Shown piece by piece: positions 9,646 to 29,214 of a stretch of 64,000 nucleotides of DNA. The stretch is from Methanomassiliicoccales archaeon UBA280 (GTDB lineage Archaea > Thermoplasmatota > Thermoplasmata > SG8-5), in NCBI GenBank assembly GCA_002499085.1, contig DAKD01000027.1, positions 12,324 to 76,323 on the forward strand. The letters run 5' to 3'. The notes beneath the pieces were generated by a model that was not told the origin of the DNA, did no database searches, and saw nothing but the letters and a program-made list of their open reading frames with translations. The position numbers and the translations under genes were made by a program. Each line of letters begins with the position of its first letter. The first letter of the stretch is position 1.

Positions 9646-9728
9646 GTTTATCGCGGATTATATATAGATGCGACTATAAAAACATATTGCAGAGAAACAA
9701 TTTATATCACGGGGAGGATGCGGATGCG

Positions 9729-11072
9729 ATGGACGAGAAGGAGCTTTTGGAGAGGGCCAAGCGCCCCGGCAAGGCCGCAATGGCCTGGCACCCTTTCTAC
9801 AGGGGCAAGATGGAAGTGATTCCCAAGTGCCGGGTTAGGGACTTCTCCGATTTCGGTGTCTGGTACACTCCGGGGGTCGCCGAGCCCTGCAACGACATTG
9901 CAGCGCATCCCGAGAGGGTTTTCGAGCACACCAACAGATGGAATTACATCGCTGTGGCCAGCAACGGCACAAGGGTTCTGGGCCTCGGGGACATAGGCCC
10001 TCTGGCCGGCTATCCGGTGATGGAGGGCAAGGCCCTGCTGTTCAAGTATCTCGGCGGCGTTGATTCCACTGCCCTCATGATCGACGCCAAGGACCCGGAG
10101 AGGTTCATAGATACCGTGAAGGCAGTCGCGCCCACCTTCGGGGGAATCAATCTCGAGGACATACGGACTCCGGATTGCTTTTACATCCTGGACAGGCTGA
10201 GGAAGGAGCTGGACATTCCAGTTTGGCATGACGACCAGCAGGGCACGGCCGCGATAACTCTTGCCGGAATCATCAACGGCCTGAAGGTCGCCGGAAAGAG
10301 ACTTCCCGAAGCGCGCATCACCCTGGTCGGGGCCGGGGCGGCCAACATATGCCTGGCATTGACGCTGATGAAGGCCGGCGCTTCGCCCGGAAAGATCGTA
10401 ATCGCGGACAGCAAGGGCACGCTCCATTCCGGGAGAAAGGACCTTGAAACTGATAAAAAGAATCCGAAGAAATGGGAGCTGGCCCAAAAGACGAATTCCG
10501 AAGGAGTCGCGGGGGACATTGCAGCTGCCCTGAAAGGCGCGGACGTTCTTGTCTCGGCTTCCAAGCCCGGCCCGGGCACTATCAAGAAGGAATGGCTCGG
10601 GGGCATGGCCCACAACCCGGTTGTCTTCGCCGAGGCAAATCCCGTTCCCGAGACCTGGCCCTGGGAGGCCAAGGAAGTCGGGGTCAGGATATTCGGCACC
10701 GGCCGGTCGGATTTCCCGAACCAGGTCAACAATTCAATCGGATTCCCGGGCATCTTCAGGGGGACCCTGGATGTAAGAGCCAGCACAATCACGGATGAAA
10801 TGCACATTGCAGCGGCCCATTCAATAGCAAAAACAGCCGAGGAAAAAGGCCTGCGCGAGGATTATCTTGTTCCCACGATGGATGAAATTTCGGTATTCAT
10901 CAACACCGCGGTTGCAGTGGCCGAGAAGGCCATGGAGCAGGGCGTCGCCGGGTTGAAAAGGTCGCGCCAGGACCTGCGGGAGACGGCTGAGTTTCTCATC
11001 ACCACGTCAAGGGAAAAGACCAATTTGATGATGGATAATGGCTTCATCCTGGAGCCGCCTGAAACGGATTAG
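9729..11072 (+). CDS. NAD(P)-dependent malic enzyme
   Basis: Supporting motifs: VWYTPGVAEPC, LGLGDIGPLAGYPVMEGKALLFK, GGINLEDI, VWHDDQQGTA and the Rossmann motif GAGAAN. The ATG at 9729 lies downstream of TATA-like CTATAAAAAC. The ORF-track start at 9687 is a TTG. Confidence 0.9.
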   Translation: MDEKELLERAKRPGKAAMAWHPFYRGKMEVIPKCRVRDFSDFGVWYTPGVAEPCNDIAAHPERVFEHTNRWNYIAVASNGTRVLGLGDIGPLAGYPVMEGKALLFKYLGGVDSTALMIDAKDPERFIDTVKAVAPTFGGINLEDIRTPDCFYILDRLRKELDIPVWHDDQQGTAAITLAGIINGLKVAGKRLPEARITLVGAGAANICLALTLMKAGASPGKIVIADSKGTLHSGRKDLETDKKNPKKWELAQKTNSEGVAGDIAAALKGADVLVSASKPGPGTIKKEWLGGMAHNPVVFAEANPVPETWPWEAKEVGVRIFGTGRSDFPNQVNNSIGFPGIFRGTLDVRASTITDEMHIAAAHSIAKTAEEKGLREDYLVPTMDEISVFINTAVAVAEKAMEQGVAGLKRSRQDLRETAEFLITTSREKTNLMMDNGFILEPPETD

Positions 11073-13825
11073 AGGGACCTACGCCGGCGCAGGAAATAGG
11101 CGAATACTGCCGCAGCGATAAAAATCGCCGCGACTGTAATTGTGATCTCTGTTGGGGACAGCGAGATTTGGGATGGGGGCGGTTCCTCGGGAGGTGCAGC
11201 GTCCACTATCTGCAATGTGCACCGGTTCTGCCCCTGAATGGTTCCGTTCGCCGGATGCACGGCTACGGCTGTCAGCAAATACTCGATGACGGAGCCGTCG
11301 TTGTCAGGCAGGTCCGTAGCCGTGACAGTGAACCTTGCCCTGCCATCCGCATCTGTATCCTGATACATAGGTTCGACCATCGGTACTGCCGGGGACGCTG
11401 CCAGGGCGACAGAAGCCCCGCTGACGCTTGCCCCGTCCTGGTCTGTGACAAACACATCAACATAGGTGAAGCCCAATGTTCCGTCCTCGGAGATGTCGGG
11501 GCTGATTATGTCCGGGTCCGCAGACATCATGGCCGACAGGAAAGGCCTGCCTGCCGGATAAACGCGGATGAGTATCTGTCTGCTCGGGGCGTCTTCATAC
11601 TCCCAGTCGGACGGGTCAGTGTACTTGGCCTTGACAATCTGGATTATCGCCTCAGTCCCGTTGGCCTGGGCATCAGGGTCTGTCGGGTCGGCCCACGGTG
11701 CCGTGAAAATCACAGTCAGCTTCCCGGTAGATGAGGTGACACCGGTTTCGATTGATAGGGTTCCGACTGAGGCCGAGAGCTGGACAATGGCGCCTTCCAC
11801 GGGGTTGGCGTTCTCGTCCTTGACTAGCACCGCCAGGGAAGAAGCGGAGCCCGAGATCACAGCCGAGGGCGGGGAAACAAACTGCGCGACCAACTTATGC
11901 GGGTTTGGACCCCTGATGGCCCTTAGAGACTGTATGTTGAATACTGAACCTGCATCGCTCTGCCAGCCTGTGAACCGGTCCGAGCGAAGAGCCTCGATGT
12001 TGGTTTTGTAGTGTAGCACATCATAGGGGAGGTCGTTGCATACCGCTGCCTGGGCCTCGAATATCGCAGCCTTTCTGACAGTGTCGTTGTCTGACGACCT
12101 GGCCAATTCTACCGCGGAGTCGAAGCTCGAGTTCCTGTATCCTGCATGGTTCAACCCGACGTCCACACTCTCAGAGTGGAAGAGGCTGTATAGGAATTCC
12201 GGAGGCTCTGAATCTATATTGGTCCGGGACATGCACATGTCGAAATCCCCGGACAGCATCCTGTCCTCTATGGAGCGGATGTCCATCGCAACCGAGTTGG
12301 TATATATGCCTACGTCCCTGAACTGGTTGGCAATCATCAACCCGGGCTGGGCACATATCGGGTCATAATTGGCCTCGGGAGTGAGCATCTCGATTAGGCC
12401 GCCTGCGCCGCTGCCTATGGGTGTGCCGTCGGGATTCATCCACCATTTTCCATTCCCGGCCGCGGCAATGGCCTCGGCGCCGGAGAGCAGAGTTCCAGAG
12501 CTGTTGACCTTGTATCCCGCATTCGCCAGGATGTTCTTCGCCTCCTGCGGGTCAAAGCTGTACTTCCGTATGCTCTGGTTGTACCATGGGCTGATAGAGC
12601 TGATTGTGCCTTCGCCCGCGATTCCCGTGCACAGAAGCAGTCTCTGGACGATTGTGTTTTTGTCTATGCAATGGGCCATGGCCCTGCGCAGGGGCTTTCC
12701 TGCATCCGAGCCGGCCGTGTCGTATCCAAACGAACACCGTCCCATGTTGTATGCCAGATGGGTGAAGCTCTCGTCGAAGCTTTGGTATAGCGATATTCCG
12801 GGCTCGTTAGCGAGTTCCTGGATGAACGTTGGGGGCACTGACCATGCGATGTAATCGGTGTTGTTGCTCTTCAGCGCCAGCACCGCCGACTCCGCCGTCC
12901 TGAACGACCTGAACATGATGCCGCCCACATGCGACTGCTCGGCGAGGGAGCGCCCCCATTCGTCATGGCAGAAGTCTTCGTACGCGAAACCGGGCCCGAA
13001 GAAATGCGCGCGCCAGGCTGTGAGATTCGTGTAATCCCCTGAGGCATTAGCCCATTTGAAAATCCCGCTACCTATGGGATTCGGATTGGAAAATTCGCTG
13101 GCTGCCGAGAGGTGCCAGGAATCATATGAATCCGGAACGTAACCCGAATCGCACCATATCTTAGCGTGGTCAACGGCCTGGCCAGACGCGGCACCCGCCC
13201 ACACATGTTCGGGTAGCAGCCTTACTGCAAGCGTTCGGTTGAAGAACTGCCAGTAGGGGACCTGGAGTGTGAACTTCAGCGCGGCTTTTGTTCCGTTCTC
13301 CCAGAGTTTCTCGATGCCCAGGCCGTGCGTGATGCTGTAATCACCCTCCATCAGGCAGCGCATATCGCCCCTGGATTCGGGTAACTGAGCCGCCACATGG
13401 TAGCTAAAGAGGATGTCCCTGATATCCATCTGATGGCCGTCATGCCACATTACATTCGTGAAGTCGTAGAATATCACTGCCTCGGGGTGCGAAGAATCTG
13501 TCCATGTCGATTTGGGGGAATATCCGAAATTGCCAATCTCGCAGCCGGACCAGTCCGTTCCGAGACCTGTGGAATTGGCCGAGCCCACTGCGATGTAAGG
13601 TCTTATTTTACCTTCATCATCCAAGAAAACCGGCGTGTCATAGATCCACCGGGTCATCAGATGCGTCCAGTGGTCGATGCCGGTGTAGAAGGGGTTGGTG
13701 CTCTGGAGTTCGCCCTGCACCGCGACCCTGAGTATGAGCCCGTCCTCGGCCTGGGAGCTGGCCGGAGCCGGCACTATCGCTGCCGCGACCAGAAAAAATG
13801 CCACGAGGGGGGCGGCCCACCTCAT
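11069..13825 (-). CDS. family-5 (Opp/Dpp-type) solute-binding protein paralog 1 with Ig-like C-terminal extension and TM anchor
   Basis: 918 aa. It has a signal peptide, an SBP_bac_5-like body (...AGYKV..., WWMNPDGTPIG, FDMCMSRTNI) and an intimin/Big-like segment (VLVKDENANPVEGAIVQLSASVGTLS). The C-terminus is hydrophobic, ending in RRRRSL. Its start overlaps the upstream stop by 4 nt. Confidence 0.8.
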   Translation of the reverse strand: MRWAAPLVAFFLVAAAIVPAPASSQAEDGLILRVAVQGELQSTNPFYTGIDHWTHLMTRWIYDTPVFLDDEGKIRPYIAVGSANSTGLGTDWSGCEIGNFGYSPKSTWTDSSHPEAVIFYDFTNVMWHDGHQMDIRDILFSYHVAAQLPESRGDMRCLMEGDYSITHGLGIEKLWENGTKAALKFTLQVPYWQFFNRTLAVRLLPEHVWAGAASGQAVDHAKIWCDSGYVPDSYDSWHLSAASEFSNPNPIGSGIFKWANASGDYTNLTAWRAHFFGPGFAYEDFCHDEWGRSLAEQSHVGGIMFRSFRTAESAVLALKSNNTDYIAWSVPPTFIQELANEPGISLYQSFDESFTHLAYNMGRCSFGYDTAGSDAGKPLRRAMAHCIDKNTIVQRLLLCTGIAGEGTISSISPWYNQSIRKYSFDPQEAKNILANAGYKVNSSGTLLSGAEAIAAAGNGKWWMNPDGTPIGSGAGGLIEMLTPEANYDPICAQPGLMIANQFRDVGIYTNSVAMDIRSIEDRMLSGDFDMCMSRTNIDSEPPEFLYSLFHSESVDVGLNHAGYRNSSFDSAVELARSSDNDTVRKAAIFEAQAAVCNDLPYDVLHYKTNIEALRSDRFTGWQSDAGSVFNIQSLRAIRGPNPHKLVAQFVSPPSAVISGSASSLAVLVKDENANPVEGAIVQLSASVGTLSIETGVTSSTGKLTVIFTAPWADPTDPDAQANGTEAIIQIVKAKYTDPSDWEYEDAPSRQILIRVYPAGRPFLSAMMSADPDIISPDISEDGTLGFTYVDVFVTDQDGASVSGASVALAASPAVPMVEPMYQDTDADGRARFTVTATDLPDNDGSVIEYLLTAVAVHPANGTIQGQNRCTLQIVDAAPPEEPPPSQISLSPTEITITVAAIFIAAAVFAYFLRRRRSL

Positions 13826-16590
13826 GCTTTCTTCCTCCGCTTGAGCATGTAGCCGAAGGCTGCGGCCGCGACGAAGATTGCCGCGAGGGTGAATGTTATT
13901 TCTGCCGGCGACAGCCCCGAGTCCGACCCGGGGGGCGGTTCTGTGTACAAGTCAACCACCGTGATGGATATCGTGTTTTCGCCTTGGATGTGTGTGTCGG
14001 TCGGATGAATGGCAATTGCCGATAAGGAATACTCGGCCACAGTCCCGCCCGAACCGGAAATGTTGCCGACCGTCACCCTGAACCTTGCCCTGCCTTCCGC
14101 ATCTGTGCGCTGGTCAGCAGGCTCGATGTCTATAACCGCCGGGGAGGCACTGAGCCCCACATTCGCATTTTCCACCGGAACGCCATCTTGGTTGACGACG
14201 AGCACATCAACATAGGTGAAGCCGGGTGTGCCACCGATGTCCGAGTCTATCACATCCGGGTCTGCTGTCAGGGATACTGAAAGGAACTCGGCCCCCTCCG
14301 GGAAGACCTTGACAAGGGTTATCCGGCTGGGCGCCGGTTCGTACACAACATATTCGGGCGAGACATAGGTCGCATACTCTATGCTGATAAGCGCGCCGGA
14401 GCCGTTTATGACAGAGTCTATGTCGTTCGGGTCAGAATATGGAGCCGTGTAAGTAACAGTCAGCTTCCCGGTCGATGAGGTGTTGCCGAACTCCTGGGAC
14501 AGCGCGCCGGCGGTCGCGTTCAGCTTCACCCCGGCCCCTTCCAGGGGATTGCCGTCCTGGTCCCTGACATATACAGTTATCTGGGTCGTGGAATTGGATA
14601 GGACGGCCGAGGGCGGGCTCATGAACTGGGCGATGACCTTCCACGGCCCGGGAGCGTGGATGTTGTACAGGGACTGCAAGTTGAATATCGAGCCTTTGTC
14701 GCCCACGACCCAGCCTGTGAACCTGTCCGAACGGTAAGCCTCGATGTTGGTCCTGTAATACAGAACGTCGTAAGGCAGGTCATAGCAAATCGCGGCCTGC
14801 GCGTCCAGTATGGCTTTCTTCTTCACGGCCGGGTCGCCCGTGCTCCTGGCCAGGTCGATGAGCGCGTCGAAGGAGGCATTGTTGTACCCGGGGTAGTTCT
14901 GGCCCACATCGGCATTATCGGAGTGGAAGAACGCGTGCAGGTAGTCGGCCGGCTCGGAGCCGATGCTCCAGCCCAGGATGTACATGTCGAAGTCCCTTTC
15001 GTCAATCCTGTCGACGATTGAGCCGAAGTCCATTGCCACTGATTGGGCATAGATTCCGATGTCGCGTAGTTGCTCAGCAATAATCGCTGGCCGCTGATAG
15101 CTGATTGGGTCATAGTGTCCTTCGGGAGTCAATATATCAATCAGGCCGCCAGATGAGCTCCCTATGTTCGATCCATCCGGATTCAGCCACCAGTTGCCGT
15201 TCCTGGCTTTTGTCACGTCGGCAAGCCCCGTGGTTGAATTGATGCTGCCGTCAGTCAGTTTATACCCTGCGTCGGCCAGTATCTGCTTGGCCTTCTCCGG
15301 GTCGAAATCATAGGTCGGGACCGAGGAATTGTACCATTCGCTGAACGGTGACACCGGCCCTGTGCCGGCCACCCCAAGGTTCAGAAGATCTCTTTGGACA
15401 ATTCTCTGCTTGTCTATGCAATGCGCAATCGCCCGGCGCAACGGCTTACCCACATCCTCACCTGTCTCGTTGTACCCGAAGGATTTCCTCCTCATGTTAT
15501 AGGCCAGGTAGAAGAAGCCTTTCTCGGGGTTCTGCTGGAGGGCTATGCCGGGCTCGTTGGCCAGCTCCTGCACGTATGTCGGCGGCACAGACCAGGCAAT
15601 GTAATCTATATCGTCGGATTTCAGGGCCAGGACCGCGGCTTCGGCCGTCCTGAATATCTTGTATGTGACCGCGTCTATCTCGGGCTGCTTGGCATCCGAG
15701 CGGCCGTATTCATCGGTTCCGACATAGTCCCTGTACTTGTAATCCTCACTGAAGAAATGGTCGCGCCATGTGGATATCTTTATCGTGTGGCCGACCTCGT
15801 GGAATTCAAACTTGAAAGGGCCGCTTCCTATGCATGCGGCATTCTCGTATGCCTGGGCCGGCGCCGCAAGCCAGGGGTTCGAAAGGTAATCCGTGTCGCA
15901 CCATATCTTGGCGCCGGATAGCTGGCCTGCTGCAACTGTGTTCCATATGTGCTCGGGCAACAGGAATGTGGATATCGTGGACCTGAAGAAGTCGGCGAAC
16001 GGCTCCTGGACCTGGAACCTGAGCGCGGCCTGCAACCCATCGGCGCTCTCCCAGACCTTGTAAACATGCAGCCATCCAATAGCCGAGAAATTCGAACCGA
16101 TGGCGCCCCCATTGGCCTTCAGCGGGTTCATTGAGCCGGACCAATCCGGAATCTGGGCCGCAAGATGCATCGAGAACATGATGTCCCTGACTGTCATCTG
16201 CACGCCGTCATGCCATGTAATATTCGTGAAATCGTAGAATAGTATGGCTTCCTGCTTCGTCTGGTTCTGCCAGACATTCTTCGGGCTGTAGCCGAAGTTC
16301 CCGATCGCGCAGTCAGCCCAGGAATCGGCTTTACCCGAGACATTGGCCGAGCCCACCGCGATGTACGGGACTATCTCGTCAGTGTCCGGGTCGGTGTTGA
16401 TGGGGTCGTCGAAGATGTAGCTGAGCACGTTCCAGGACCAGACGTCGCCCACGATCAGGGGGTTGGTGCCCTTCATGTCGTCCTGCATGGCGACCCGCAG
16501 TATGAGCTCCGAATCCTGGGAGCTGGCGAGGCCGGGTGCAAGTGTCCCGGCGAGCATCAGCAGAGCCGCGGCGAACACGAGAATCCTCAT
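13822..16590 (-). CDS. family-5 solute-binding protein paralog 2 with Ig-like extension and TM anchor
   Basis: 922 aa, colinear with paralogs 1 and 3 (FDMYILGWSIGSEP, WWLNPDGSNIG). It has a signal peptide and a C-terminal TM segment ending in KRRKKA. ATGA overlaps occur at both junctions. Confidence 0.8.
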   Translation of the reverse strand: MRILVFAAALLMLAGTLAPGLASSQDSELILRVAMQDDMKGTNPLIVGDVWSWNVLSYIFDDPINTDPDTDEIVPYIAVGSANVSGKADSWADCAIGNFGYSPKNVWQNQTKQEAILFYDFTNITWHDGVQMTVRDIMFSMHLAAQIPDWSGSMNPLKANGGAIGSNFSAIGWLHVYKVWESADGLQAALRFQVQEPFADFFRSTISTFLLPEHIWNTVAAGQLSGAKIWCDTDYLSNPWLAAPAQAYENAACIGSGPFKFEFHEVGHTIKISTWRDHFFSEDYKYRDYVGTDEYGRSDAKQPEIDAVTYKIFRTAEAAVLALKSDDIDYIAWSVPPTYVQELANEPGIALQQNPEKGFFYLAYNMRRKSFGYNETGEDVGKPLRRAIAHCIDKQRIVQRDLLNLGVAGTGPVSPFSEWYNSSVPTYDFDPEKAKQILADAGYKLTDGSINSTTGLADVTKARNGNWWLNPDGSNIGSSSGGLIDILTPEGHYDPISYQRPAIIAEQLRDIGIYAQSVAMDFGSIVDRIDERDFDMYILGWSIGSEPADYLHAFFHSDNADVGQNYPGYNNASFDALIDLARSTGDPAVKKKAILDAQAAICYDLPYDVLYYRTNIEAYRSDRFTGWVVGDKGSIFNLQSLYNIHAPGPWKVIAQFMSPPSAVLSNSTTQITVYVRDQDGNPLEGAGVKLNATAGALSQEFGNTSSTGKLTVTYTAPYSDPNDIDSVINGSGALISIEYATYVSPEYVVYEPAPSRITLVKVFPEGAEFLSVSLTADPDVIDSDIGGTPGFTYVDVLVVNQDGVPVENANVGLSASPAVIDIEPADQRTDAEGRARFRVTVGNISGSGGTVAEYSLSAIAIHPTDTHIQGENTISITVVDLYTEPPPGSDSGLSPAEITFTLAAIFVAAAAFGYMLKRRKKA

Positions 16591-19343: not shown

Positions 19344-19385
19344 GTTTTCCCGGCAAAAGCATTCTTTCTGTATATATATAATAAC

Positions 19386-19437
19386 ATTGGTACGGTGTTT
19401 TGTATATTATATAAGTATATTGGTACAACGTTTTGTA
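19386..19437 (-). promoter_or_regulatory. promoter module A: two TACAAAAC-N3-GTACCAAT boxes flanking an AT-rich core, upstream of SBP paralog 3
   Basis: On the plus strand, ATTGGTACGGTGTTTTGTA lies at 19386-19404 and ATTGGTACAACGTTTTGTA at 19419-19437, with starts 33 bp apart. The TATA-like TATATATATAAT lies at 19371-19382, between the boxes and ATG 19343. Confidence 0.55.
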
Positions 19438-19735
19438 GGCGCGCGATGTAATAGCATGACCGAGCGTCCTGTCGAAACTGCGTTTCGACGGATATTTGTT
19501 CACTGCGTTCACAAAATAAGCAGGCGGGCGGATTTTCTTCTTTTGCAGCCATTTTTCTTTTTTGGAGCCCGACTTAACACCTTGGACACCCTGCTAACCA
19601 CATAGATTTTTCGAGCAGGCTTACCAGAGTTTTTTCTATTAATGAATTTTTCTTTTTGACGACGGTAAGCCAGCGGAGAAAAATCTTTCAAAAAGAAAAA
19701 CTCCAGCGCAGCGAGGTTTATAAAAAAGAAGAATG

Positions 19736-19787
19736 GGGGTACAGGCGTTTTGTATATTATATATAATTATTGGTGCAGTGTTTTGTA
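19736..19787 (-). promoter_or_regulatory. promoter module B: second copy of the two-box module, immediately downstream of SBP paralog 4
   Basis: The sequence is GGGGTACAGGCGTTTTGTA-TATTATATATAATT-ATTGGTGCAGTGTTTTGTA. It is colinear with module A, with a few substitutions and a 1-nt indel. Confidence 0.5.
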
Positions 19788-19796
19788 AAGGCCGGG

Positions 19797-22523
19797 CTAT
19801 CTCCGTCTTCCCTTCCGCATCCTGCGCACAACCCCCAGAAGGGCCAGGGCGCTCAGGCCTATCACGGCCGGAAGCATGAGCCTCTCGGCCGCTGAACCTC
19901 CCGCCGCGTCCGCCTCCTCTACATAGGGCAGCACTGTCAGCGTGACATTCGCCGTCGCATTCCTGAACCCGCCCTTGGTGGCGTTGATTGTGATGTTGCA
20001 GTCTGCCAATGATTCGACGTCGGCCGCGTAGACTGTCACGGAGGCGCTGCCTCCGCTGTCTGTCCTGGCCTCTGCCGCGCCCAGCGTGACGTTCCCGTCC
20101 CGGGTGCTCAGCCTGAGAACCGCGCCGTCAACCGGCATGTTGGCCGCATCCCTGACCATTATGTTGAGGTATGTGAACCCGGCATTTCCCGAATGGTCCC
20201 TTGCAGTTACCGTGTCAGGGTCCGCAGCCGCCCGGATTAGCAGCGTCCTCAGCCTCTCTGGGAATATCGTTATCGTGAACGTGACTGAAACTGCGGGCCT
20301 GTAGCCGGCGAGTGTCGCGGATGTTACCGTGAGAGTCACCGACTCCGAATTCGTGTATGATTCCACCAGCGGCACGTACGGCGCTGTGAAGTTGGTCGAG
20401 AACTGGCCGTGAGCGTCTGTGCGGCCAGTCAGGTTGAGCAGGTATCCCGTGCTTGCGCTCAGGACGACATCCGCGCCCTGCATCGCGTTGCCGCTGAGGT
20501 CTGTTATCTTGACCGAGAAGGTGTGAGTGGAGTTAGACTGGCCCGTCAGGGGAAGCCCAAGGAACCTGGCCCTGAGCATGGCCTTCTCCTGCTTGACTAT
20601 GCTTGTCATGGAGAGAGCGTTCAGCAGGCTTCCGGAGCCGTCGTCGACGAAACCGTCGAAGTTGTCTGCCCTGTAGAACTCGGTGGCCGATATCTGGTAC
20701 AGAGGGTACATGGGCACGTCATAGGCAATGGAGGATTCTGAGTCCTGGACGTATTTCAGGTGCGCGGCCGGGTCTGTGGCTGACATCGCGCTCTGGAGCT
20801 TCATGTCCAGGGACGAGTTCGAGTAACCGCAGATGTTGGGGCCGTACAGAGTCATGTCGGTGTGAAACAGCCTGTAGTAGTATGTGTCGGGGCGCGCCCT
20901 CTCGCCCGAAATCACTGCCTGGCTGACGATGCACATGTCGAATTCCCGTGAGTCCAGGCGCTCGGCCAGGGCTGTCGCGTTCATCGGCACAAGCTCGGTT
21001 TTGATGCCTATGGCATTCATCTGGTTCGCCAGCATGGAGCCTGCCTGGTACATGGTCAGGTCCGTGACTGAGTCCGGAACAAGGAGCTTGACCGCGCCGT
21101 CGGGCATGCTGCCAATCCTGGTGCCGTCCGGGTTGAGCCACCAATTGCCCTCGCCCGGAGGCTGGCTCCTGTCAGTGGGCACGTAACCCGTGTTGTTCAG
21201 TATGCTCATTGCCGCAGACGGATCGAACGCGTAGGCAGGGGCGGTGAGGTTCTTCCAGAGCCCGAAGACCGCGGGAGGGTAGGACGTGGCCAGGTTGGCC
21301 ATGCTGTTCATCCCGGTTGTGTCGGCGCAGTGGGCCAGCGCCTTCCTGAGCGGCTTGCCGTAATCTATGTCCGTGAATGTGACGCTGCTGTAGTCCCTGT
21401 CGTACCCGAAGGGCCTGCGCCTCATGTTGAAGGCGACCTGGACAATGGTCTCGGACCTCAATGACTCGTAAGCCACTTCCTCGCTGCCTCCGAACCTGGC
21501 CAGCGCCCCGGGCAGGTCCCAGGCTATGTAATCGATCCAGTCCGCCTCGAGGTCCATGATCGCTGCCTCCTCGGACAGGTAGGGACTGAGCACGATTCTG
21601 TCTATCATGGGCTCGGACGCTATTCCAGATTCGTAAACGTAATACCTTGACCCGGGCCTGTAGAAATGGCCCTGCCACGCGCCGAGCGTTATCCTGCCGC
21701 CAGCATTGCCTGCCCATATGAACGGCCCGCTTCCCACAGGATTCGGGTTGGTGAACTTGGTGGCAAAGTACAGCTTCCATGAGTACTGGTCGGAGCTGTT
21801 GTATCCCGGATCGGACCATATCATGGTGTTGTTCATCGTCTGGTTCGAGGCCTCGCCGCCCCAGATGTGGTAGGGCAGTATGGGAGCCGAGAAATAGCTG
21901 TCGAACACCCCGAACAGGGGCTTCTGCAGAGTGAATTTGAGCGCGGCCCTTGACATGTCCTGGCTTTCCCAGACCTTCTGAATGTGCAGCCACCTCGAGT
22001 CCGTGTAATTGCTGCCCAGCAGCCCTGCCTTGTCTGCGAGCGGATGCCCCATCCACCCATCCTGGAAATGTGCCTGGGCATGGAACGAGAACATGATGTC
22101 CCGCGCGGTCATCTGCTCCCCGTCATGCCATTTCACGCCCCCGAAATCGTAGAACACTGTAATCTCTGGCTTGCCCGGATCCTCCCAGAGCCCTTTCGGC
22201 CTGTAACCGAAATTGCCCACGGAACAGTCCGCCCATGTCACATTGTAGGGGTTCGCCGAGACATTGGCTGTCCCGACCGCAATGTAAGGGACGCGTTCGC
22301 CAGTCTCGGGATTAATCTTTGTTGCCGTGTCGTATATCAGGCCGAGCACGTTCATGGAGGCTGCGTCAGCAGTCAGCGGGTTCGTGGATGCGAGCGGCTT
22401 TATCGCGGCCCTGAACACTGTCTCGGCGGCGGCACCGGCCTGCGCCTGTGGAACGGCCGGCACGAGCAGGGCGAGCGCCAGGATGATGCAGACCGGCCTC
22501 CAGTAAGCAATGCGGGATCTCAT
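19797..22523 (-). CDS. family-5 solute-binding protein paralog 4 (more divergent) with Ig-like extension and TM anchor
   Basis: The start is taken at ATG 22523 (MRSRIAYWRPVCIILALALLVPAVPQAQA, a signal peptide), which overlaps the upstream stop by 4 nt. The ORF-track start at 22802 runs into the upstream gene. The body is SBP5-like (WWLNPDGTRIG, FDMCIVSQ) and the C-terminus is a TM segment ending in RRMRKGRRR. Confidence 0.75.
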   Translation of the reverse strand: MRSRIAYWRPVCIILALALLVPAVPQAQAGAAAETVFRAAIKPLASTNPLTADAASMNVLGLIYDTATKINPETGERVPYIAVGTANVSANPYNVTWADCSVGNFGYRPKGLWEDPGKPEITVFYDFGGVKWHDGEQMTARDIMFSFHAQAHFQDGWMGHPLADKAGLLGSNYTDSRWLHIQKVWESQDMSRAALKFTLQKPLFGVFDSYFSAPILPYHIWGGEASNQTMNNTMIWSDPGYNSSDQYSWKLYFATKFTNPNPVGSGPFIWAGNAGGRITLGAWQGHFYRPGSRYYVYESGIASEPMIDRIVLSPYLSEEAAIMDLEADWIDYIAWDLPGALARFGGSEEVAYESLRSETIVQVAFNMRRRPFGYDRDYSSVTFTDIDYGKPLRKALAHCADTTGMNSMANLATSYPPAVFGLWKNLTAPAYAFDPSAAMSILNNTGYVPTDRSQPPGEGNWWLNPDGTRIGSMPDGAVKLLVPDSVTDLTMYQAGSMLANQMNAIGIKTELVPMNATALAERLDSREFDMCIVSQAVISGERARPDTYYYRLFHTDMTLYGPNICGYSNSSLDMKLQSAMSATDPAAHLKYVQDSESSIAYDVPMYPLYQISATEFYRADNFDGFVDDGSGSLLNALSMTSIVKQEKAMLRARFLGLPLTGQSNSTHTFSVKITDLSGNAMQGADVVLSASTGYLLNLTGRTDAHGQFSTNFTAPYVPLVESYTNSESVTLTVTSATLAGYRPAVSVTFTITIFPERLRTLLIRAAADPDTVTARDHSGNAGFTYLNIMVRDAANMPVDGAVLRLSTRDGNVTLGAAEARTDSGGSASVTVYAADVESLADCNITINATKGGFRNATANVTLTVLPYVEEADAAGGSAAERLMLPAVIGLSALALLGVVRRMRKGRRR

Positions 22524-25513
22524 CTGCTGTCCCTCCGGGCCTTCCTGCGGCCTTTGACGGTCGCCGCAAGCAGCAGAACTGAAACGGCCAGCAATGCAGC
22601 GCACGCTGCTGTTACCGGCCCGATACCGGACTGTTCGGGCGGCGCTGGGACTGTCACGGCCATGACGTCGGTGCCTGAATTTCCCGCGGCATCGCTCACT
22701 GTCAGGTTCACCTGTGTCGTCCCGGGCGACCAGAACCTGTATGACTGTTCTGGGCCGTAAAGCGTCACGGCCGAGCCGTTGTGGACGAATGTCCATGTCC
22801 AATTCACTACCCCGACATCGTCATAGGAGGCCGAGCCGTTCAGGGCTGTCTCCGAGCCTGCCCCGGAAAGTGGGACTGGCAGGGCAACGGCCAGCGGCGC
22901 GGAATTGTCCAGGACCGTAACCGTCGCAATGCTTGTGTTCGTGTTTCCGTCCGCATCCCGGACAGTCAGAGAGGCACGGTACACGCCCGGCACACTGAAT
23001 GTCCATGACACCGACGCATCGGCCGACATGATGCCCGTGTTGACGCCGTCGCTGAACACCCATGAGTATTCGGTTATGGCGACATTGTCCCTGCTCGCGG
23101 AACCGTCCAGGCTCACTGCCGTGCTCCGGTTCACCGTGATGTCCGGACCTGCATCGGCAATCGGTATCGGATAGATGAGGACGGAGAGGGCCAGTGTGTC
23201 CGTGTCAGTGCTGCCCACGCTGTCCTGCACCGTGAGTGTGACCGTGTAATTGCCCGGCACCGCGAAGAAATGGTCGGCCACAATTCCCGAAAGGTTCTGG
23301 TGGGCTGCGCCGTCAAAGAAGCTCCATGTGTAATTGACAATCCCGGCGTTGTCGGTGCTGCCCGAGCCGTCGAACCTGACCGTGTTGCTTTCGTTTACTG
23401 CGATGTCGGGGCCTGCGTCCGCGGTCGGAGCGATTATGTCGGCCTTGATGGCGAACGCATCTGTCCCGCCGGAGGCTGTTTTGCCGGGCACGGCCAGTGT
23501 CGCGGGGAAGTCGTCCGAGGCAGTCAGGCCGGCAATGAACACGCATGCGTCGTCCGCCACAGCAATGCCTTGACCGGAGTCGTCCTCCGAGCCGCCAATG
23601 TAGGTCGAATAAACAAGGCGGCCTGTGTCAGGCGCAACCTTGGAGATGAACGCGTCGGCATTGCCGCTGTTTGCCCTTGCCAGGCCGTCCCTTGTAACCG
23701 GGAAATCAGTTGATTCTGTGAGGCCGGTCACATGGGCATGGCCTTCGGAGTCCAGGGCTATGCCCCCTGCCGCTTCTCTGCCGCTGCCGCCCAGGTAAGT
23801 GCAGTATTCCGCATCCTGGCCCGAGGCGCTCAGCCTTGCAATGAAAAGGTCTGTGCCGCCTCCGAGCGCCTGCTGCGCCGCGCCGGTTGTTGCAGGGAAA
23901 TCCGTGGAGTTTGTCTGCCCGGTGAGATGGGCCCGTCCCAGGGAGTCGACGGCGATGCCTGAGCCCATGTCAGCGCCGCTGCCGCCCAGTACCGCTGAGT
24001 ACTCGAGAGCGCTCCCGTGCAGGCCCAGTTTTGCGGCGAATGCATTCTGCCCCGGCTTGGTTGCATTGAGTCGGCCCGATGTCACTGGGAAATCGGACGA
24101 GGCTGTGGTGCCTGTGATGTAGGCATACCCATCCAGGACTGCTATCCCCGAGGCCGAGTCTGAGCCTGTGCCGCCAATGAAGGTCGAGTAGAGGATGATG
24201 TCGCCCTGGAGGCTCAGCTTTGTGACGAATGCGTCTGAGTCGCCATTCAGCCGCGTGCCGTAAGCCCTGAGTGTCGCCGGGAAGTCTGCTGACCATGTAT
24301 GGCCTGTGATGTACGCCTGGCCCATGCCGTCGATCCCTATACCCGAGCCTTCCTCGTCATGGCTCCCCCCCAGGTATGTCGAGTAGTTCAGGGAGAGTCC
24401 GTCCGGGCCCAGCTTGGCCACGAATGCGTCACCCACGCCGCCGTAAGCGGCGTCCGCGGCCCCGCCCGTGACTGGGAAATCCGTGGACTGGGTCAGGCCG
24501 GTGATGTGCGCGCACCCCGAAGAGTCCACTGCCATGGCCTTTGCCGCGTCATACTGTGTGCCGCCGATGAATGCCGCATACTCGAGCGTCTCGCCCGTGG
24601 GATTCAGCTTGGCCACGAAGATGTCATGGCTGCCCCTCGGGTCCTGGACGCCTGAAACGGGCAGAACGCCCGCGGAGTCTGTCATGCCGGCGACATAGGC
24701 CGAGCCGTCAGCGCCCAGGGCCAGGGCCAGTCCCGAATCCTCCCCCCCGCCGCCAAGGAATGTGGAGTACACCAGCGGGTCTATGACAATGGCGCGGGAT
24801 GCTTCCCTACCTTCGACTGCGAAGGAATATGTGCCGTCGCCGTGAAGAACGAACCCGGATTCCAGAGTGTCGCCGGGGCTGCCTTGGTAGTATGTCTCGG
24901 GAGGCGAATCGGTGAGCGTCTCGCCCGACCCGGCCACGATGTTCAGCGAGCCGTCCGCGGCCAGATGCATCGAGGCTTGTCCTGCGACCCTCACCCGTAT
25001 CTGGGCGGGGTCAGCGAATTCGTGGACCAGGTACTGGTACTTCAGCGAGCCGTTGCTGAGCGAGAATTCAAGGTCGATGCCGTCCCACAGGTTCTCGTAA
25101 ACCAGGGCGCGGTAATTGGCCGCCCCGGTGTGCCAGCTTGCCGGGTCGTTCCCCATGAAATAGCTTGTGCGCCATGATGCGGGATCCAGCCCGAGCGGCT
25201 CGGCAGCATTGCAGCCTTCGAAGCGGAATTCCAGGGGGCCGCTGCCTGTGCGTACCGTGAAAGAGCCGTCTGCGAAGGCGATTCTGCCCGATGTCGCATG
25301 GTACCTGATCGCAGCGTCCCCGGCCTGGCCGATGTTCTCCGTGAACACGCTCATCAGGGTTGCGGGCGCAACTGACGGTTCGAACGTCCCCGAGGGCCCG
25401 GGAACGGGTTCCGGGTCCAGGGCTGTTGCCGCGGGAGGCGGATTGTCGATGCATGGGGAGAGCGATGCCAGCAACAGAAGGACCAGTATCGCGGCGGGAA
25501 TTGTGTGCCTCAT
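22520..25513 (-). CDS. SBBP beta-propeller-repeat / PKD-domain surface protein 2, C-terminal TM anchor
   Basis: The start is taken at ATG 25513 (MRHTIPAAILVLLLLASLSPC), in an ATGA overlap with the upstream stop. The protein has repeated ...G.AVD..G.AY.TG.T.S.DFP.T... units, then PKD-like units (W.F.DG ... TV.D..G), and a C-terminal TM segment with a basic tail. The ORF-track start at 26371 is an extension into the upstream gene. Confidence 0.8.
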   Translation of the reverse strand: MRHTIPAAILVLLLLASLSPCIDNPPPAATALDPEPVPGPSGTFEPSVAPATLMSVFTENIGQAGDAAIRYHATSGRIAFADGSFTVRTGSGPLEFRFEGCNAAEPLGLDPASWRTSYFMGNDPASWHTGAANYRALVYENLWDGIDLEFSLSNGSLKYQYLVHEFADPAQIRVRVAGQASMHLAADGSLNIVAGSGETLTDSPPETYYQGSPGDTLESGFVLHGDGTYSFAVEGREASRAIVIDPLVYSTFLGGGGEDSGLALALGADGSAYVAGMTDSAGVLPVSGVQDPRGSHDIFVAKLNPTGETLEYAAFIGGTQYDAAKAMAVDSSGCAHITGLTQSTDFPVTGGAADAAYGGVGDAFVAKLGPDGLSLNYSTYLGGSHDEEGSGIGIDGMGQAYITGHTWSADFPATLRAYGTRLNGDSDAFVTKLSLQGDIILYSTFIGGTGSDSASGIAVLDGYAYITGTTASSDFPVTSGRLNATKPGQNAFAAKLGLHGSALEYSAVLGGSGADMGSGIAVDSLGRAHLTGQTNSTDFPATTGAAQQALGGGTDLFIARLSASGQDAEYCTYLGGSGREAAGGIALDSEGHAHVTGLTESTDFPVTRDGLARANSGNADAFISKVAPDTGRLVYSTYIGGSEDDSGQGIAVADDACVFIAGLTASDDFPATLAVPGKTASGGTDAFAIKADIIAPTADAGPDIAVNESNTVRFDGSGSTDNAGIVNYTWSFFDGAAHQNLSGIVADHFFAVPGNYTVTLTVQDSVGSTDTDTLALSVLIYPIPIADAGPDITVNRSTAVSLDGSASRDNVAITEYSWVFSDGVNTGIMSADASVSWTFSVPGVYRASLTVRDADGNTNTSIATVTVLDNSAPLAVALPVPLSGAGSETALNGSASYDDVGVVNWTWTFVHNGSAVTLYGPEQSYRFWSPGTTQVNLTVSDAAGNSGTDVMAVTVPAPPEQSGIGPVTAACAALLAVSVLLLAATVKGRRKARRDSR

Positions 25514-28500
25514 GGCCTTCCTGCCCCCTGTCCCTTCCTCTTGCGCAGCATTGCCGTGGCCGCGAGCATTATGCAGGCAGGCAGCAACAGTGCCCACCCG
25601 TACGAGTCTCTCCAGCCAGACGACGAAACAGCCTCTGTCCCGGCCACTGTCACGGCAATACTGGCCTCTGCGGAGTTCCCGTTGGCGTCGAGAACTGTGA
25701 GCGTCACTGTGTACGTTCCCTCGGTCCAGAAGAGGAATGACTGAGTCTGGCCGAACAGGGTTATCTCTGTTCCGTTGTACACGAATGTCCAGGTGAAGTT
25801 GGCTATGCCGGAGCTGTCGTAGCTGCGCGACCCGTCGAATTCGGCCGATGTCCCGGGCAATATGATGCGGTTGGCTCCGGGGGCCGCAATCGGCGGCATG
25901 GTGTCGAGCACGGTCACTGTCATCGTGTCCAGGGCCCAGTTCCCTGCCGCATCCGAGGCATTGAGCGTGACCTGGTATGTGCCGGGCACAGTGAATATCC
26001 AGGAAGGGTTCCGGCCGAACAGGGTTATGCTGTTCAGGCCGTCGTTGAATGACCAGACCCAGCTTGCAACTCCGATGTTGTCCGTGCACCCCGACCCGTC
26101 GAAGAGTGCTGTTTCCGCCTCGTTCACTGTCATGTCCGGGCCTGCGTCTGCCGCCGGGCTTGATGTCTCGAGCACAGTCAGCACCATGGTGTCTGTGCCT
26201 GTGAGGCCTGACGTGTCCGTGACTGTGAGCCGGACCGGGTATGTGCCGGGCACGCTGAAGAAGTGGCGCACCTGCGCGCCTTGGAGAACGAAGTCGGCTG
26301 TTCCGTCGCTGAAAAACCATGTGTATGAGGTTATGTCGACATTGTCCCGGCTGGCAGCGCCGTCGAACCATGTCTCGTTGCCGCTGTAAAGGGACCTGTC
26401 AGGCCCGGCCCTGGCCGTGGGCGCGGTGATGTCGTATATCAGCACCGAGACAGTGTCCACGGCCCAGTTCCCTGCCGCGTCCCAGATCTTCAGAGTTATG
26501 GCATAGTTTCCGGGTGTGGCGAAGACATATGACGGGGTCTGGCCGTACAGAACCTTATCGACATATCTCTCGGTGAAAGACCATGTGTAGTTGACGATGC
26601 CCACGTTGTCCGAGCATGCCGCCGCGCTGAGCTGCACGGCAGTGTCCTCATCTGCGACTATGTCCGGGCCTGCATCGGCCGTCGGATGCGTGATGTCCCA
26701 AACAGTGAGGACAGCGGTGTCGGTGTCCCAGTAACCTGAGGCATCAGTGACGTTCAGTGTGACTGTGTAAATTCCCGGAACAGGGAACATGCGCTGCGGG
26801 GAAATGCCGTACATCTCGATGATTGACTGGCCGGCCGTGAAGGTCCATGTGAAATTGACTATGCCGTGGTTGTCTGTGCTTCCGGCCGCGGTGAAAGTTG
26901 CCGTCTGGCCCTCATTGATCAGCATGTCCTGCCCGGCGTCGGCAACTGGCGGGGCGATGTCCAGCTTCGTGACGAATCCGTCGCTGTTCCCGCCGAATGA
27001 GATGTCCGCAGCACCCGATGATGCGGGAAATGCGGGGGAAAACGTCTCGCCGACTATGTGCGCGAAACCTGTCTGGCCTGCGGCTATTGCCCAGGCATAA
27101 TCATTTTCCGGTCCGCCCAGGAATGTGGAGTCCAGGAGATGTGCCCCTGACGCTGACAGCTTGCTCATGAAGGCGTCAGTGCCGCCGTTGTGCGTCCTGT
27201 CATAGCCCCTCTCCGCCATGGGATAGTCGGGCGATGCCGTGTGCCCCGCAATCGCGGCGCAGCCGTATGAGTCCAGGCTTATGCCGACGCCGGAATCTGC
27301 GTTTGCTCCGCCCAGGAATGTGGAGTATGCAAGACTCTCCCCGTACCTGTCCAGCATGGTGACGAAGGCATCGCTGCCGCCGTTATGCGAGATGTCGTAA
27401 GCGCCCTCGGTGGTCGGAAAGTCGGTTGAGACTGTGCTGCCTGTGACATACACTGTGCCCCATGCCCCCACGGCTATGCCGTTGCCGTAGTCTGCGCTCG
27501 AGCCCCCGATGAATGTGCAGTACATGAACGACGTACCGGTCTGGCTGAGCTTGGCCGCGAAGGCGTCATAACCGCCGTTATGCGTCCTGTCGAAAGCCCT
27601 CGAGGTCGCCGGAAACATGGCGGACCGCGTCTGGCCCGTGATGAAGGCATAGCCGTTGCTGTCGACCGCGATGTCGTTCGCGTAGTCGTAATCGGCATGT
27701 CCCAGGTAGGTCGAGTACTCGATGGAGCTTCCATGGCGGTTAAGCTTGGTCACGAAGCCGTCGTTCGCGCCTGTCGAGCCGCCGTTGAAAGAGCGCATTG
27801 CCGCATCCGACGATATGGGGAAGTTCTGGGACCACGTGTCTCCGACGATATAGGCAGAGCCCGAGCCGTCAACCGCAATGGCGGAGGCGCAGTCCACGGC
27901 CGAGCCGCCCAGGTATGTCGAGTAAATCAGCGAGTCTCCGAGCGGGCTGAACTTGGCAACGAAGGAGTCGTAAGTGTCGCCGTTGTAGGCCGGGCTGAAG
28001 GCGCCCTGGGTCGTGGGAAAATGCTGGCTCATCGTGTAACCAGTGATGTAGGCATTGCCTTCGGAGTCGACCGCTATGCCTTTGCCGAAATCATGGGACT
28101 CGCCGCCCATCATCGCAGTGTATACCACGGAGTCGCCGTTGAGCCCCATCTTCGTGACGAATATGACATTGCTTTCCGGATTCGAGACGCTCACGTAAGC
28201 CCCGAAGGACGTGGGGAAGTCCAGTGAGTCAGTGTATCCGACTGTGTATGCGCAACCGTCCGTGCCTACGGCAACATCGGTCGGGCGATCATACCCAGTG
28301 CCGCCGATGAATGTCGAATATATCAGCGGGTCTATGGTCATGGGCCGGGACATGTCCCTCCGCCCAAGGCTGAATGAGTACATGTTTTCGGAAAGGACCG
28401 TGAAACTTGCCTGGATTTTTTCGGCGACCGCGTCGGTGTAGAACACATCCAGGCCTGCATCGGTTATGCTGCGGCCGTTGCCCAGTTCCATCTCGAGCCC

Positions 28501-29097
28501 GGAATCGGACACGCTGAGCGCCTCCGCGCCTTCGGCCTTTATCCGTATCAGCCCGGGGTCTGCTCCCGGGGCCACCGAGAACTCGTATTTCACCGAGCCG
28601 TTGACGAACATGTATGTGAGGTCTATGCCGTCCCACAGGTTCCTGTAAACGACAGCGCGGTAATTCGGCACTCCAGAATGCCATGAGCCTTCATCCTGGC
28701 CTATGAAAAAATTGCTCTTCCAGGGCAGCGGGTCCGAGCCTTCGGGCCCGGCTGCGTTGCAACCCGGGAAACACAGCCGAAGAACGCTTTTCCCGGATGC
28801 GCCGGACTCCGCTCCCCCGGCAGTGTAGATGAAAACAGAATCGGATGCGAAGGCCATGCTGCCCGATGCAGCATAGAAAAGCACATCCGGGTTCGGAACC
28901 TGGCCCAGATTCTCGGTGAAGGCGGCCGTGGGCTCGGAGCGGATGGCCGGGGCATGCGCTGTTTGGGCCGGCAGCAGGGCTGCCCCTGATTCCGGTGTTG
29001 CCGGCGCAGAGGCGGACCTTTGCTGAATCAGTGCCGGAAAGAGCAGGCAGAACACCAACACGCAGCAGAGGCAAAGAGTAGTTAATCTGGTCGGCAT
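25510..29097 (-). CDS. SBBP beta-propeller-repeat / PKD-domain surface protein 1, C-terminal TM anchor
   Basis: 1195 aa. It has a signal peptide (LCLCCVLVFCLLFPALI), about nine SBBP-type repeats, five PKD-like repeats (WTFTAGQ, WSFTERY, WFFSDGT, WSFNDGL, WTFVYNG) and a C-terminal TM segment. Confidence 0.8.
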   Translation of the reverse strand: MPTRLTTLCLCCVLVFCLLFPALIQQRSASAPATPESGAALLPAQTAHAPAIRSEPTAAFTENLGQVPNPDVLFYAASGSMAFASDSVFIYTAGGAESGASGKSVLRLCFPGCNAAGPEGSDPLPWKSNFFIGQDEGSWHSGVPNYRAVVYRNLWDGIDLTYMFVNGSVKYEFSVAPGADPGLIRIKAEGAEALSVSDSGLEMELGNGRSITDAGLDVFYTDAVAEKIQASFTVLSENMYSFSLGRRDMSRPMTIDPLIYSTFIGGTGYDRPTDVAVGTDGCAYTVGYTDSLDFPTSFGAYVSVSNPESNVIFVTKMGLNGDSVVYTAMMGGESHDFGKGIAVDSEGNAYITGYTMSQHFPTTQGAFSPAYNGDTYDSFVAKFSPLGDSLIYSTYLGGSAVDCASAIAVDGSGSAYIVGDTWSQNFPISSDAAMRSFNGGSTGANDGFVTKLNRHGSSIEYSTYLGHADYDYANDIAVDSNGYAFITGQTRSAMFPATSRAFDRTHNGGYDAFAAKLSQTGTSFMYCTFIGGSSADYGNGIAVGAWGTVYVTGSTVSTDFPTTEGAYDISHNGGSDAFVTMLDRYGESLAYSTFLGGANADSGVGISLDSYGCAAIAGHTASPDYPMAERGYDRTHNGGTDAFMSKLSASGAHLLDSTFLGGPENDYAWAIAAGQTGFAHIVGETFSPAFPASSGAADISFGGNSDGFVTKLDIAPPVADAGQDMLINEGQTATFTAAGSTDNHGIVNFTWTFTAGQSIIEMYGISPQRMFPVPGIYTVTLNVTDASGYWDTDTAVLTVWDITHPTADAGPDIVADEDTAVQLSAAACSDNVGIVNYTWSFTERYVDKVLYGQTPSYVFATPGNYAITLKIWDAAGNWAVDTVSVLIYDITAPTARAGPDRSLYSGNETWFDGAASRDNVDITSYTWFFSDGTADFVLQGAQVRHFFSVPGTYPVRLTVTDTSGLTGTDTMVLTVLETSSPAADAGPDMTVNEAETALFDGSGCTDNIGVASWVWSFNDGLNSITLFGRNPSWIFTVPGTYQVTLNASDAAGNWALDTMTVTVLDTMPPIAAPGANRIILPGTSAEFDGSRSYDSSGIANFTWTFVYNGTEITLFGQTQSFLFWTEGTYTVTLTVLDANGNSAEASIAVTVAGTEAVSSSGWRDSYGWALLLPACIMLAATAMLRKRKGQGAGRP

Positions 29098-29144
29098 TTA
29101 TCTTTCACCGTGGCATCCTGCCATTGAACAGGGATATGGTATAT

Positions 29145-29168
29145 ATGGATTGCCGGATGGCAATCCAT
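29145..29168. promoter_or_regulatory. perfect 10-bp-arm palindrome ATGGATTGCC-GGAT-GGCAATCCAT in a divergent promoter region
   Basis: Read directly from the sequence. It abuts the TATA-like GGTATATATGG between the surface-protein operon (start 29097, minus strand) and the phosphoesterase gene (start 29215, plus strand). Confidence 0.45.
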
Positions 29169-29214
29169 CTCCCGCGGGCACGGGAATTTTATACACCGAG
29201 GGATTGCATGCTTC

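Follow-up and report, generated by a model that had tools for sequence, protein, structure and literature searches.

How should a run of solute-binding proteins (SBPs) be understood when no transporter is encoded beside them? The question is raised by a 64,000-nucleotide stretch of DNA (the window) from Methanomassiliicoccales archaeon UBA280, which corresponds to positions 12324-76323 of contig C16 (DAKD01000027.1, assembly GCA_002499085.1) in a 1.75-Mb genome bin that comprises 37 contigs and is 77% complete. By ORF coordinates and translations, positions 11069-29097 of the window are filled by six long open reading frames (ORFs), all on the minus strand, which encode four family-5 SBPs (SBP1 to SBP4) and two propeller/PKD proteins (SBBP-A and SBBP-B). 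An earlier note on this DNA had taken the lack of an ABC transporter partner, together with the membrane anchors of the proteins, to mean that the SBPs may belong to a tethered surface assembly rather than serve as transporter receptors alone. Our analysis leads to a different reading, which we hold to be moderately probable: SBP1, SBP2 and SBP3 would be accessory receptors of an Opp-type importer, here called type I, that is encoded elsewhere, and the genes for SBP4 and the two propeller proteins would be a genus-specific surface addition.

The island is laid out as follows, with protein lengths counted from the ATG inside each ATGA overlap.

29098..29214, minus strand: divergent promoter region of operon 1, 117 bp, with a palindrome and a TATA-like box and without the two-box module

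25510..29097, minus strand: SBBP-B, 1195 aa, first gene of operon 1; signal peptide, DUF7948, SBBP beta-propeller, five PKD domains, C-terminal transmembrane (TM) helix and basic tail

22520..25513, minus strand: SBBP-A, 997 aa; signal peptide, DUF7948 beta-sandwich, seven-bladed SBBP propeller, three PKD domains, TM anchor; ATGA overlap at both ends

19797..22523, minus strand: SBP4, 908 aa; divergent family-5 SBP, stalked and anchored; SBP_bac_5 at 98 bits, Big_1

19344..19796, minus strand: inter-operon spacer, 453 bp; oligo-T runs after SBP4 and a duplicated two-box module at 19717-19796

19367..19446, minus strand: two-box promoter module before SBP3, TTTACAAAAC-N3-GTACCA ... TATACAAAAC-N3-GTACCAAT ... 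TTATATATA

16587..19343, minus strand: SBP3, 918 aa, first gene of operon 2; OppA-type binding protein, stalked and anchored

13822..16590, minus strand: SBP2, 922 aa, middle gene of operon 2; OppA-type binding protein, stalked and anchored

11069..13825, minus strand: SBP1, 918 aa, last gene of operon 2; OppA-type binding protein, stalked and anchored

The six minus-strand genes and the four ATGA stop/start overlaps that the earlier note had described are all present, and to that extent its picture of a co-directional, coupled island stands; what has to be amended is its unity. The 453-bp spacer is AT-rich, with TATA-containing promoter elements before SBP3 and oligo-T runs after SBP4, and on the strength of these elements we take the island to be made of two predicted operons, not one: SBBP-B/SBBP-A/SBP4 (operon 1) and SBP3/SBP2/SBP1 (operon 2), the latter ending in a 4-bp overlap of SBP1 with the convergent malic-enzyme gene. 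At the coupled junctions, purine tracts resembling Shine-Dalgarno sequences lie 5-12 nt ahead of the next ATG (window 13826-13845, 16591-16610 and 22524-22545); they are made up of Arg/Lys codons of the upstream gene's basic tail (AGG/AGA/AAG runs, e.g. GGAGGAAGA), so that the anchor tail would also provide the coupled gene with its ribosome-binding site. The reported lack of ABC permease and ATPase genes in the window extends to the whole of contig C16 (95.7 kb), on which BPD_transp_1, oligo_HPY and ABC_tran have no match anywhere; nor does a permease lie on the same transcript just outside the window.

The relatives of the organism supply what the contig does not. At L003, L005, L010, L012 and L015, an SBP of ~950 aa stands directly upstream of genes for OppB (~675 aa), OppC (~780 aa), OppD and OppF, an arrangement that we call the type-I operon. 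This operon-linked SBP is of the same family as the island proteins, carries the same Big_1 stalk and is 60-64% identical to SBP2, which is the closest of the four to the operon-linked group (64% identity in the body). Whole-genome searches and gene coordinates place the type-I operon in 7/7 congeners and, across the order, in the majority of genomes, and a second, type-II Opp operon, with a giant SBP at its head, accompanies it in all seven congeners. In a maximum-likelihood tree the proteins fall into five well-supported clades, namely SBP1, SBP2, SBP3, SBP4 and the Opp-linked SBPs; the first three join the Opp-linked clade in a tight polytomy, and SBP4 sits on a long branch (1.34). Judged from this tree, the SBPs are paralogs of long standing that have been maintained as distinct orthologous groups, in agreement with the suggestion of the earlier note that their tandem paralogy reflects diversified specificity.

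A common cis-element also points toward the importer. The two-box module has the general form TTTACAAAAC-N3-GTACCA, a TATA-like stretch, TATACAAAAC-N3-GTAC[A/C]AAT and then TTATATA. In the island it precedes SBP3, as it does the corresponding orphan SBP in L001, L002, L004, L009 and L013; in L003, L005, L010 and L018 it precedes the type-I operon, and in L003 and L018 also the neighbouring helix-turn-helix (HTH) regulator gene. An alignment of orphan-SBP and type-I Opp promoters of several species (A3) has a mean column identity of 77%. The strict motif has four matches in the genome against 0.5 expected, and three of the four lie in the island spacer; the fourth is at C2:4225, upstream of an unannotated membrane protein. 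Moreover, a block at window 19440-19720 is nearly identical to L018:9500-9745, upstream of the type-I Opp operon. The common module points to a single predicted regulon comprising the orphan receptors and the type-I importer. A candidate for its regulator, which would be autoregulated, is the HTH protein encoded upstream of type-I Opp with the same box in its own promoter (L018:8361-9389 and L003:185-1246; 342-353 aa), which has two winged-helix regions of HVO_0163_N and MarR/HTH_24 type in its C-terminal third. The block that the spacer and L018 have in common also contains a hairpin with a 7-bp stem (GTCGAAAC GCAG TTTCGAC) directly upstream of the two-box promoter, of which a weaker copy is seen at C4:78407-78537; Rfam has no match in the spacer, the hairpin block included.

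Within the bin itself, the sole Opp operon is of type II and lies on contig C8, where it encodes an SBP of 2095 aa, OppB (334 aa), OppC (770 aa), OppD and OppF. The island SBP genes are, however, also present on a 132.7-kb contig (L017) of ENA assembly ERZ27315072, with 100% identity over the 6.8 kb compared, and a second contig of that assembly, the 105.7-kb L018, carries a type-I operon with the HTH regulator gene ahead of it. Because none of the other dozen genes of L018 has an orthologue in the bin either, it is the whole region that is missing and not the operon alone. A repeat of ~170 bp on L018 recurs at >10 sites in the bin, often at contig ends and with up to 96-100% identity, and it probably breaks the assembly. 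The repeat has an internal palindrome (GGGAAGCGG runs ... CAATGGCTG..CAGCCATT ... CCCCTTCCCC), and its sites include L018:7943-8283, the ends of C26, C27, C36, C8, C22 and C7, C29:39.8-40.3 kb and C33. Over their length the OppBC genes of L018 exceed ~76% identity in no sampled congener (G001-G006); G003 comes nearest, as it does for the island. Taken together with the nearly identical block that L018 and the island spacer have in common, these comparisons make it likely that the organism has a type-I importer, L018 deriving from it or from a very close relative. The search for Opp permeases elsewhere in the genome, which the earlier note had proposed, thus yielded a type-II set in the bin and a type-I set on L018, in the assembly that also holds the island genes, not in the bin.

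The bin taken at face value would tell another story, in which the species truly lost the type-I operon and its SBPs serve only the type-II importer of C8, the one Opp-type permease set that the bin contains. We consider such a loss quite improbable: all seven congeners keep both operons, the incompleteness of the bin extends to the entire syntenic region, L018 from the same sample has the type-I operon, and the island SBPs are only ~35% identical to the C8 SBP as against 60-64% to the type-I SBPs.

Based on these relationships, we propose that SBP3, SBP2 and SBP1 are three OppA-type receptors that would be exported via a Sec-type signal peptide and held above the membrane by two Ig-like (Big_1) domains and a C-terminal TM helix. 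As presumed old paralogs of the SBP at the head of the type-I OppABCDF operon, furnished with the same two-box promoter, they would most likely bind different oligopeptide-like ligands and, by docking to OppBC, pass them to the type-I importer; if that importer were truly missing, they might use the type-II importer of C8 instead. The use of another SBP's permease by an orphan SBP is established for MppA and OppBCDF of E. coli (PMC10622912). MppA resembles the island proteins in being an unlinked paralog of an operon-encoded SBP, presumably with another ligand and with the same importer, the latter being what we infer here. The island differs from the MppA case in that three or four orphans stand in tandem, are membrane-anchored and have a promoter module in common with the importer operon. 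The type-I permeases have large extracytoplasmic inserts of ~410 aa in OppB and ~530 aa in OppC, with PQQ/BamB-like propeller matches (L005:3179-7541 and L018:12907-17278), and the insert in the organism's own type-II OppC (C8:92057-94369) is likewise extracytoplasmic and very large, and has no Pfam match. These inserts may match the height of the SBP stalks.

The domains and fold of the proteins themselves are in keeping with this proposal. Searches with PF00496 and other Pfam models found SBP_bac_5 at 98-159 bits in all four SBPs (gathering cut-off 32.4) and two Big_1/Invasin_D3 matches in each, so that the Opp/Dpp-type body with a Big-like Ig extension, predicted from the sequence alone, is borne out. 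A Kyte-Doolittle scan gave exactly two hydrophobic segments in each of the six island proteins, a signal-peptide-like one at the N-terminus and one at the C-terminus with an R/K cluster behind it, again as anticipated. An AlphaFold2 model of SBP2, the SBP chosen for modelling (mean pLDDT 89, pTM 0.82), shows both lobes of the body in full, followed by beta-sandwich domains at ~650-765 and ~770-880 and by a terminal helix at 895-921. In Foldseek comparisons, the best match is AppA (1xoc; E 2e-35, target TM-score 0.84), and DppA (1dpp) reaches 0.82; NikZ, GbpA and a Thermotoga mannoside-binding protein are further neighbours of the body. The ligands of these neighbours range from peptides and sugars to nickel complexes, opines and sialic acid, and the fold therefore leaves the ligand class unfixed. 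N-glycosylation sequons number 12-18 against ~5-6 expected in five of the six island proteins, an excess of two- to three-fold, and 8 against 9 expected in SBBP-B; SBP1-3 are probably N-glycosylated.

Neither the stalk nor the anchor speaks against transport. All six family-5 SBPs of the genome (the four in the island, one on C21 and one on C8) have a long C-terminal extension and a TM anchor, and since these include the SBP at the head of the C8 Opp operon, the design is no argument for a role outside import. In that SBP (C8:84120-90407) the SBP body is followed by a run of Gly and by repeated beta-rich modules that together span ~1400 aa; behind these come a TM helix and a cytoplasmic tail that is acidic and rich in Glu and Pro. 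The inference that orphan status, anchor or Ig stalk points away from transport is therefore not supported, given also that sister paralogs head OppBCDF operons and that the SBP3/SBP2/SBP1 promoter is shared with these operons. Within each orphan group it is the SBP body that is most highly conserved (59-69% identity in SBP1-3, 53% in SBP4), with lower values in stalk and tail, and the body values come near that of the Opp-linked group (71%). Anchoring by a C-terminal TM helix is a described mode of the archaeal OppA class (PMC3387779), and the anchored OppA proteins of Saccharolobus solfataricus and Aeropyrum pernix likewise combine a family-5 body, a signal peptide of SPase I type and a C-terminal TM anchor (PMC3387779). 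The glycosylated Ser/Thr-rich linker that precedes the anchor in that class is not found in the island SBPs, which have instead two folded Big_1-type beta-sandwiches (~230 aa in total) and a short Pro-rich linker. The island proteins also differ in standing as a tandem array away from a permease and in the coupling of one SBP to propeller/PKD genes.

Homologues of SBPs with a role in chemotaxis provide a precedent (PMC3387779) for regarding the island SBPs as sensory receptors that, like BasA and CosA of Halobacterium, feed signalling instead of transport. However, CheW and CheA have no match in the bin (77% complete), and the paralogs in relatives are operon-linked to OppBCDF; we give this idea hardly any credence, and a chemoreceptor role in particular was rejected for want of Che genes in the bin.

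The C-terminal helices allow yet another view, in which an archaeosortase-type enzyme cleaves them and the proteins become lipid-anchored or are released. The genome does encode two archaeosortases, one ArtA-like (116 bits, cut-off 75) and the other ArtC-like, the island tails have the tripartite build of Pro-rich linker, TM helix and R/K cluster, and a TPFP[TS]F motif is sharply conserved among the operon-linked orthologues. Nevertheless, PGF-, PEF- and other CTERM models do not reach their curated cut-offs on the island tails, even in searches at E up to 10; PEF/PGF-like tails of this genome are found on other large proteins; and conservation in the island proteins is lowest in their tails, with 23-33% identity within groups. 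Cleavage is, in our judgement, very unlikely, and because no CTERM model matches above cut-off and the tails are so poorly conserved, a plain TM anchor is the better reading; the concern voiced in the earlier note that the helices might be cleaved sorting signals is not borne out. Tails of the PEF-CTERM-like form (I)PE(F/M)-TM-basic occur on four very large proteins (C5:55171-63636, C5:99680-102259, C33:52701-71531 and window 41794-48762). The ArtC-like gene lies on C33 (~80.8-82.0 kb) and the ArtA-like one at C21:15519-16355, 2.3 kb upstream of the C21 SBP. The tail of the operon-linked SBPs, TPFP[TS][FA]-(L/I)(V/L)VASVFC(V/I)A(A/S)VSY followed by a basic cluster (L003:1513-4380, L005:246-3101, L010:8795-11629, L012:9947-12787 and L015:110-2968), occurs in none of the island SBPs, nor anywhere else in the bin. 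It might represent a sorting signal of a kind not yet recognised, or else a TM helix packed against the permease.

Operon 1 is a separate case. Pfam searches of SBBP-A and SBBP-B gave DUF7948 at 123-130 bits, SBBP repeats at 117-119 bits and three (A) or five (B) PKD domains; the SBBP-propeller/PKD identity that the earlier note proposed for checking with PF06739 and PKD models is upheld, with DUF7948 as an added domain. In an AlphaFold2 model of SBBP-A (mean pLDDT 83), a DUF7948 beta-sandwich is followed by a seven-bladed propeller, three PKD domains and a TM helix. By Foldseek it comes closest to the propeller of CylK (E 2e-23, ~20% identity), a cyanobacterial Friedel-Crafts alkylating enzyme (PDB 7RON/7FH6) whose active site requires an N-terminal RTX-like Ca2+ beta-roll domain (PMC8916777). 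In SBBP-A this position is occupied by the all-beta DUF7948, with no RTX match, and the SBBP proteins further differ from CylK in being extracellular and anchored and in having no halogenase context that we could see. Because the RTX-like catalytic partner domain is replaced in this way, a CylK-like enzyme function was rejected and no CylK-type activity is inferred. The propeller and PKD fragment of a Methanosarcina mazei surface-layer protein (1l0q) also matches SBBP-A (Foldseek E 2e-12). It is like SBBP-A an archaeal surface protein with a seven-bladed propeller and PKD; its repeats are of the YVTN family, whereas the island proteins have SBBP repeats together with an extra DUF7948, a TM anchor and genes coupled to an SBP.

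The DUF7948-SBBP module is widespread, with 7939 matches at E <= 1e-10 among 8000 candidates scored. Named matches outside the lineage are almost all bacterial and are fused to cohesin, dockerin, SLH, lectin and Ig modules. It has the look of a generic surface-binding module. The SBBP propeller/PKD proteins are probably of bacterial origin. Among 40 relatives, the SBBP-A/B pair occurs in 6/7 congeners and in no other genus of the family; in those six the gene order is always B-A-SBP4 on one contig, followed by one to four further SBPs, and the 4-bp stop/start overlaps recur in L009 and L002. The coupling of the propeller/PKD genes to SBP4 is thus real and genus-specific and is probably functional, perhaps in substrate capture. 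In the closest congener (L002), SBP4 and the SBP that follows are separated by an oppositely oriented gene for a secreted protein of 445 aa with two Laminin_G_3 matches (concanavalin A-like lectin/glucanase; L002:6018-7355). We suggest that operon 1 encodes two anchored propeller/PKD proteins translationally coupled to a strongly diverged SBP4, and that its likeliest role would be a surface capture or presentation step feeding SBP4. A bolder version makes SBBP-B, SBBP-A and SBP4 a new surface capture complex in which the propellers bind or process a macromolecule and pass the product to SBP4, contact between the proteins being presupposed, and would more broadly have the stalked SBPs and propellers form much of the envelope of a wall-less SG8-5 archaeon; this we regard as rather doubtful.

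The tie between SBPs and propeller/PKD proteins seen in the earlier note is therefore confirmed by synteny and recurring overlaps, and it is the non-transport conclusion drawn from it that is weakened. In the strictest form of that conclusion, the four SBPs and two propeller/PKD proteins constitute a tethered envelope layer or an adhesive or capture coat of a wall-less archaeon, with no ABC importer involved. All six proteins are anchored and five of them are rich in sequons, the overlapping genes suggest stoichiometric co-production, the order B-A-SBP4 is conserved, propeller and PKD are combined in the Methanosarcina surface-layer protein 1l0q, and the bin has six SBPs to one permease set. 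Such a coat is nonetheless unlikely when set against the OppBCDF operons headed by the nearest paralogs, the promoter held in common with the type-I Opp operon, the concentration of sequence conservation in the SBP body and not in the stalk, and the stalk and anchor found also on operon-encoded SBPs.

Several observations weigh against SBP1-3 as receptors of the type-I importer and operon 1 as a surface addition. There is no linked permease on the contig, the type-I operon is absent from this bin, and the assignment of L018 to the host organism is circumstantial. The island SBPs are without the conserved operon-linked tail (TPFP[TS]F and a TM helix with Cys), and it could be that only the operon-linked SBP comes close to the permease. 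In a phmmer alignment of SBP2 to 1dpp, two residues of DppA that we take to clamp the dipeptide termini are not kept, D408 falling in a gap and R355 standing opposite Gly491, and the ligand class (peptide, oligosaccharide or metal chelate) is therefore not fixed; AppA, the best structural match, is likewise without an Asp at the D408 site in its alignment. Finally, the promoter of operon 1 is a different one that does not contain the two-box module, and the products of this operon, SBP4 included, may thus have some other function. The regions upstream of SBBP-B in relatives yielded no alignment and no conserved operator for operon 1.

As for the organism itself, homologues of the island proteins are annotated solely from Thermoplasmata and Methanomassiliicoccales metagenome-assembled genomes. 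McrA has no match in the bin (77% complete), and a methanogen context was rejected on that ground. Thermoplasmata of the SG8-5/UBA147 type, which are thought to subsist on detrital peptides, occur widely in anoxic sediments. UBA147 has been assigned to order SG8-5, a non-methanogenic lineage with predicted peptide degradation (bioRxiv 10.1101/2020.03.09.984617), and we accordingly count the host among the non-methanogenic Thermoplasmata of this SG8-5/UBA147 lineage. An IOR-type 2-oxoacid:ferredoxin oxidoreductase (TPP_enzyme_C, POR_N and Fer4; window 731-3070) lies ~8 kb from the island and a malic enzyme (window 9687-11072) abuts it, which is consistent with amino-acid fermentation. A putative HEXXH protein at window 3664-5211 has no Pfam match.

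Anchored OppA proteins and the sharing of a permease by orphan SBPs were already known; what is new here is only that SBPs are paired with propeller proteins. The folded Ig stalk, the tandem array and the shared promoter module further set the island SBPs apart from the anchored OppA proteins and from MppA. The locus also offers parts that can be tested, namely a candidate regulon box with its candidate regulator, four receptor ectodomains fit for ligand screens and the candidate pair of SBP4 and SBBP-A/B. For annotation it counsels caution: where a bin is incomplete, the fact that an SBP looks like an 'orphan' says little in favour of a role outside transport. For the biology of these archaea, the locus suggests that one importer may be served by a set of stalked and anchored receptor paralogs with a common promoter module and probably one regulator, and that one genus added two propeller/PKD proteins to its receptor set.

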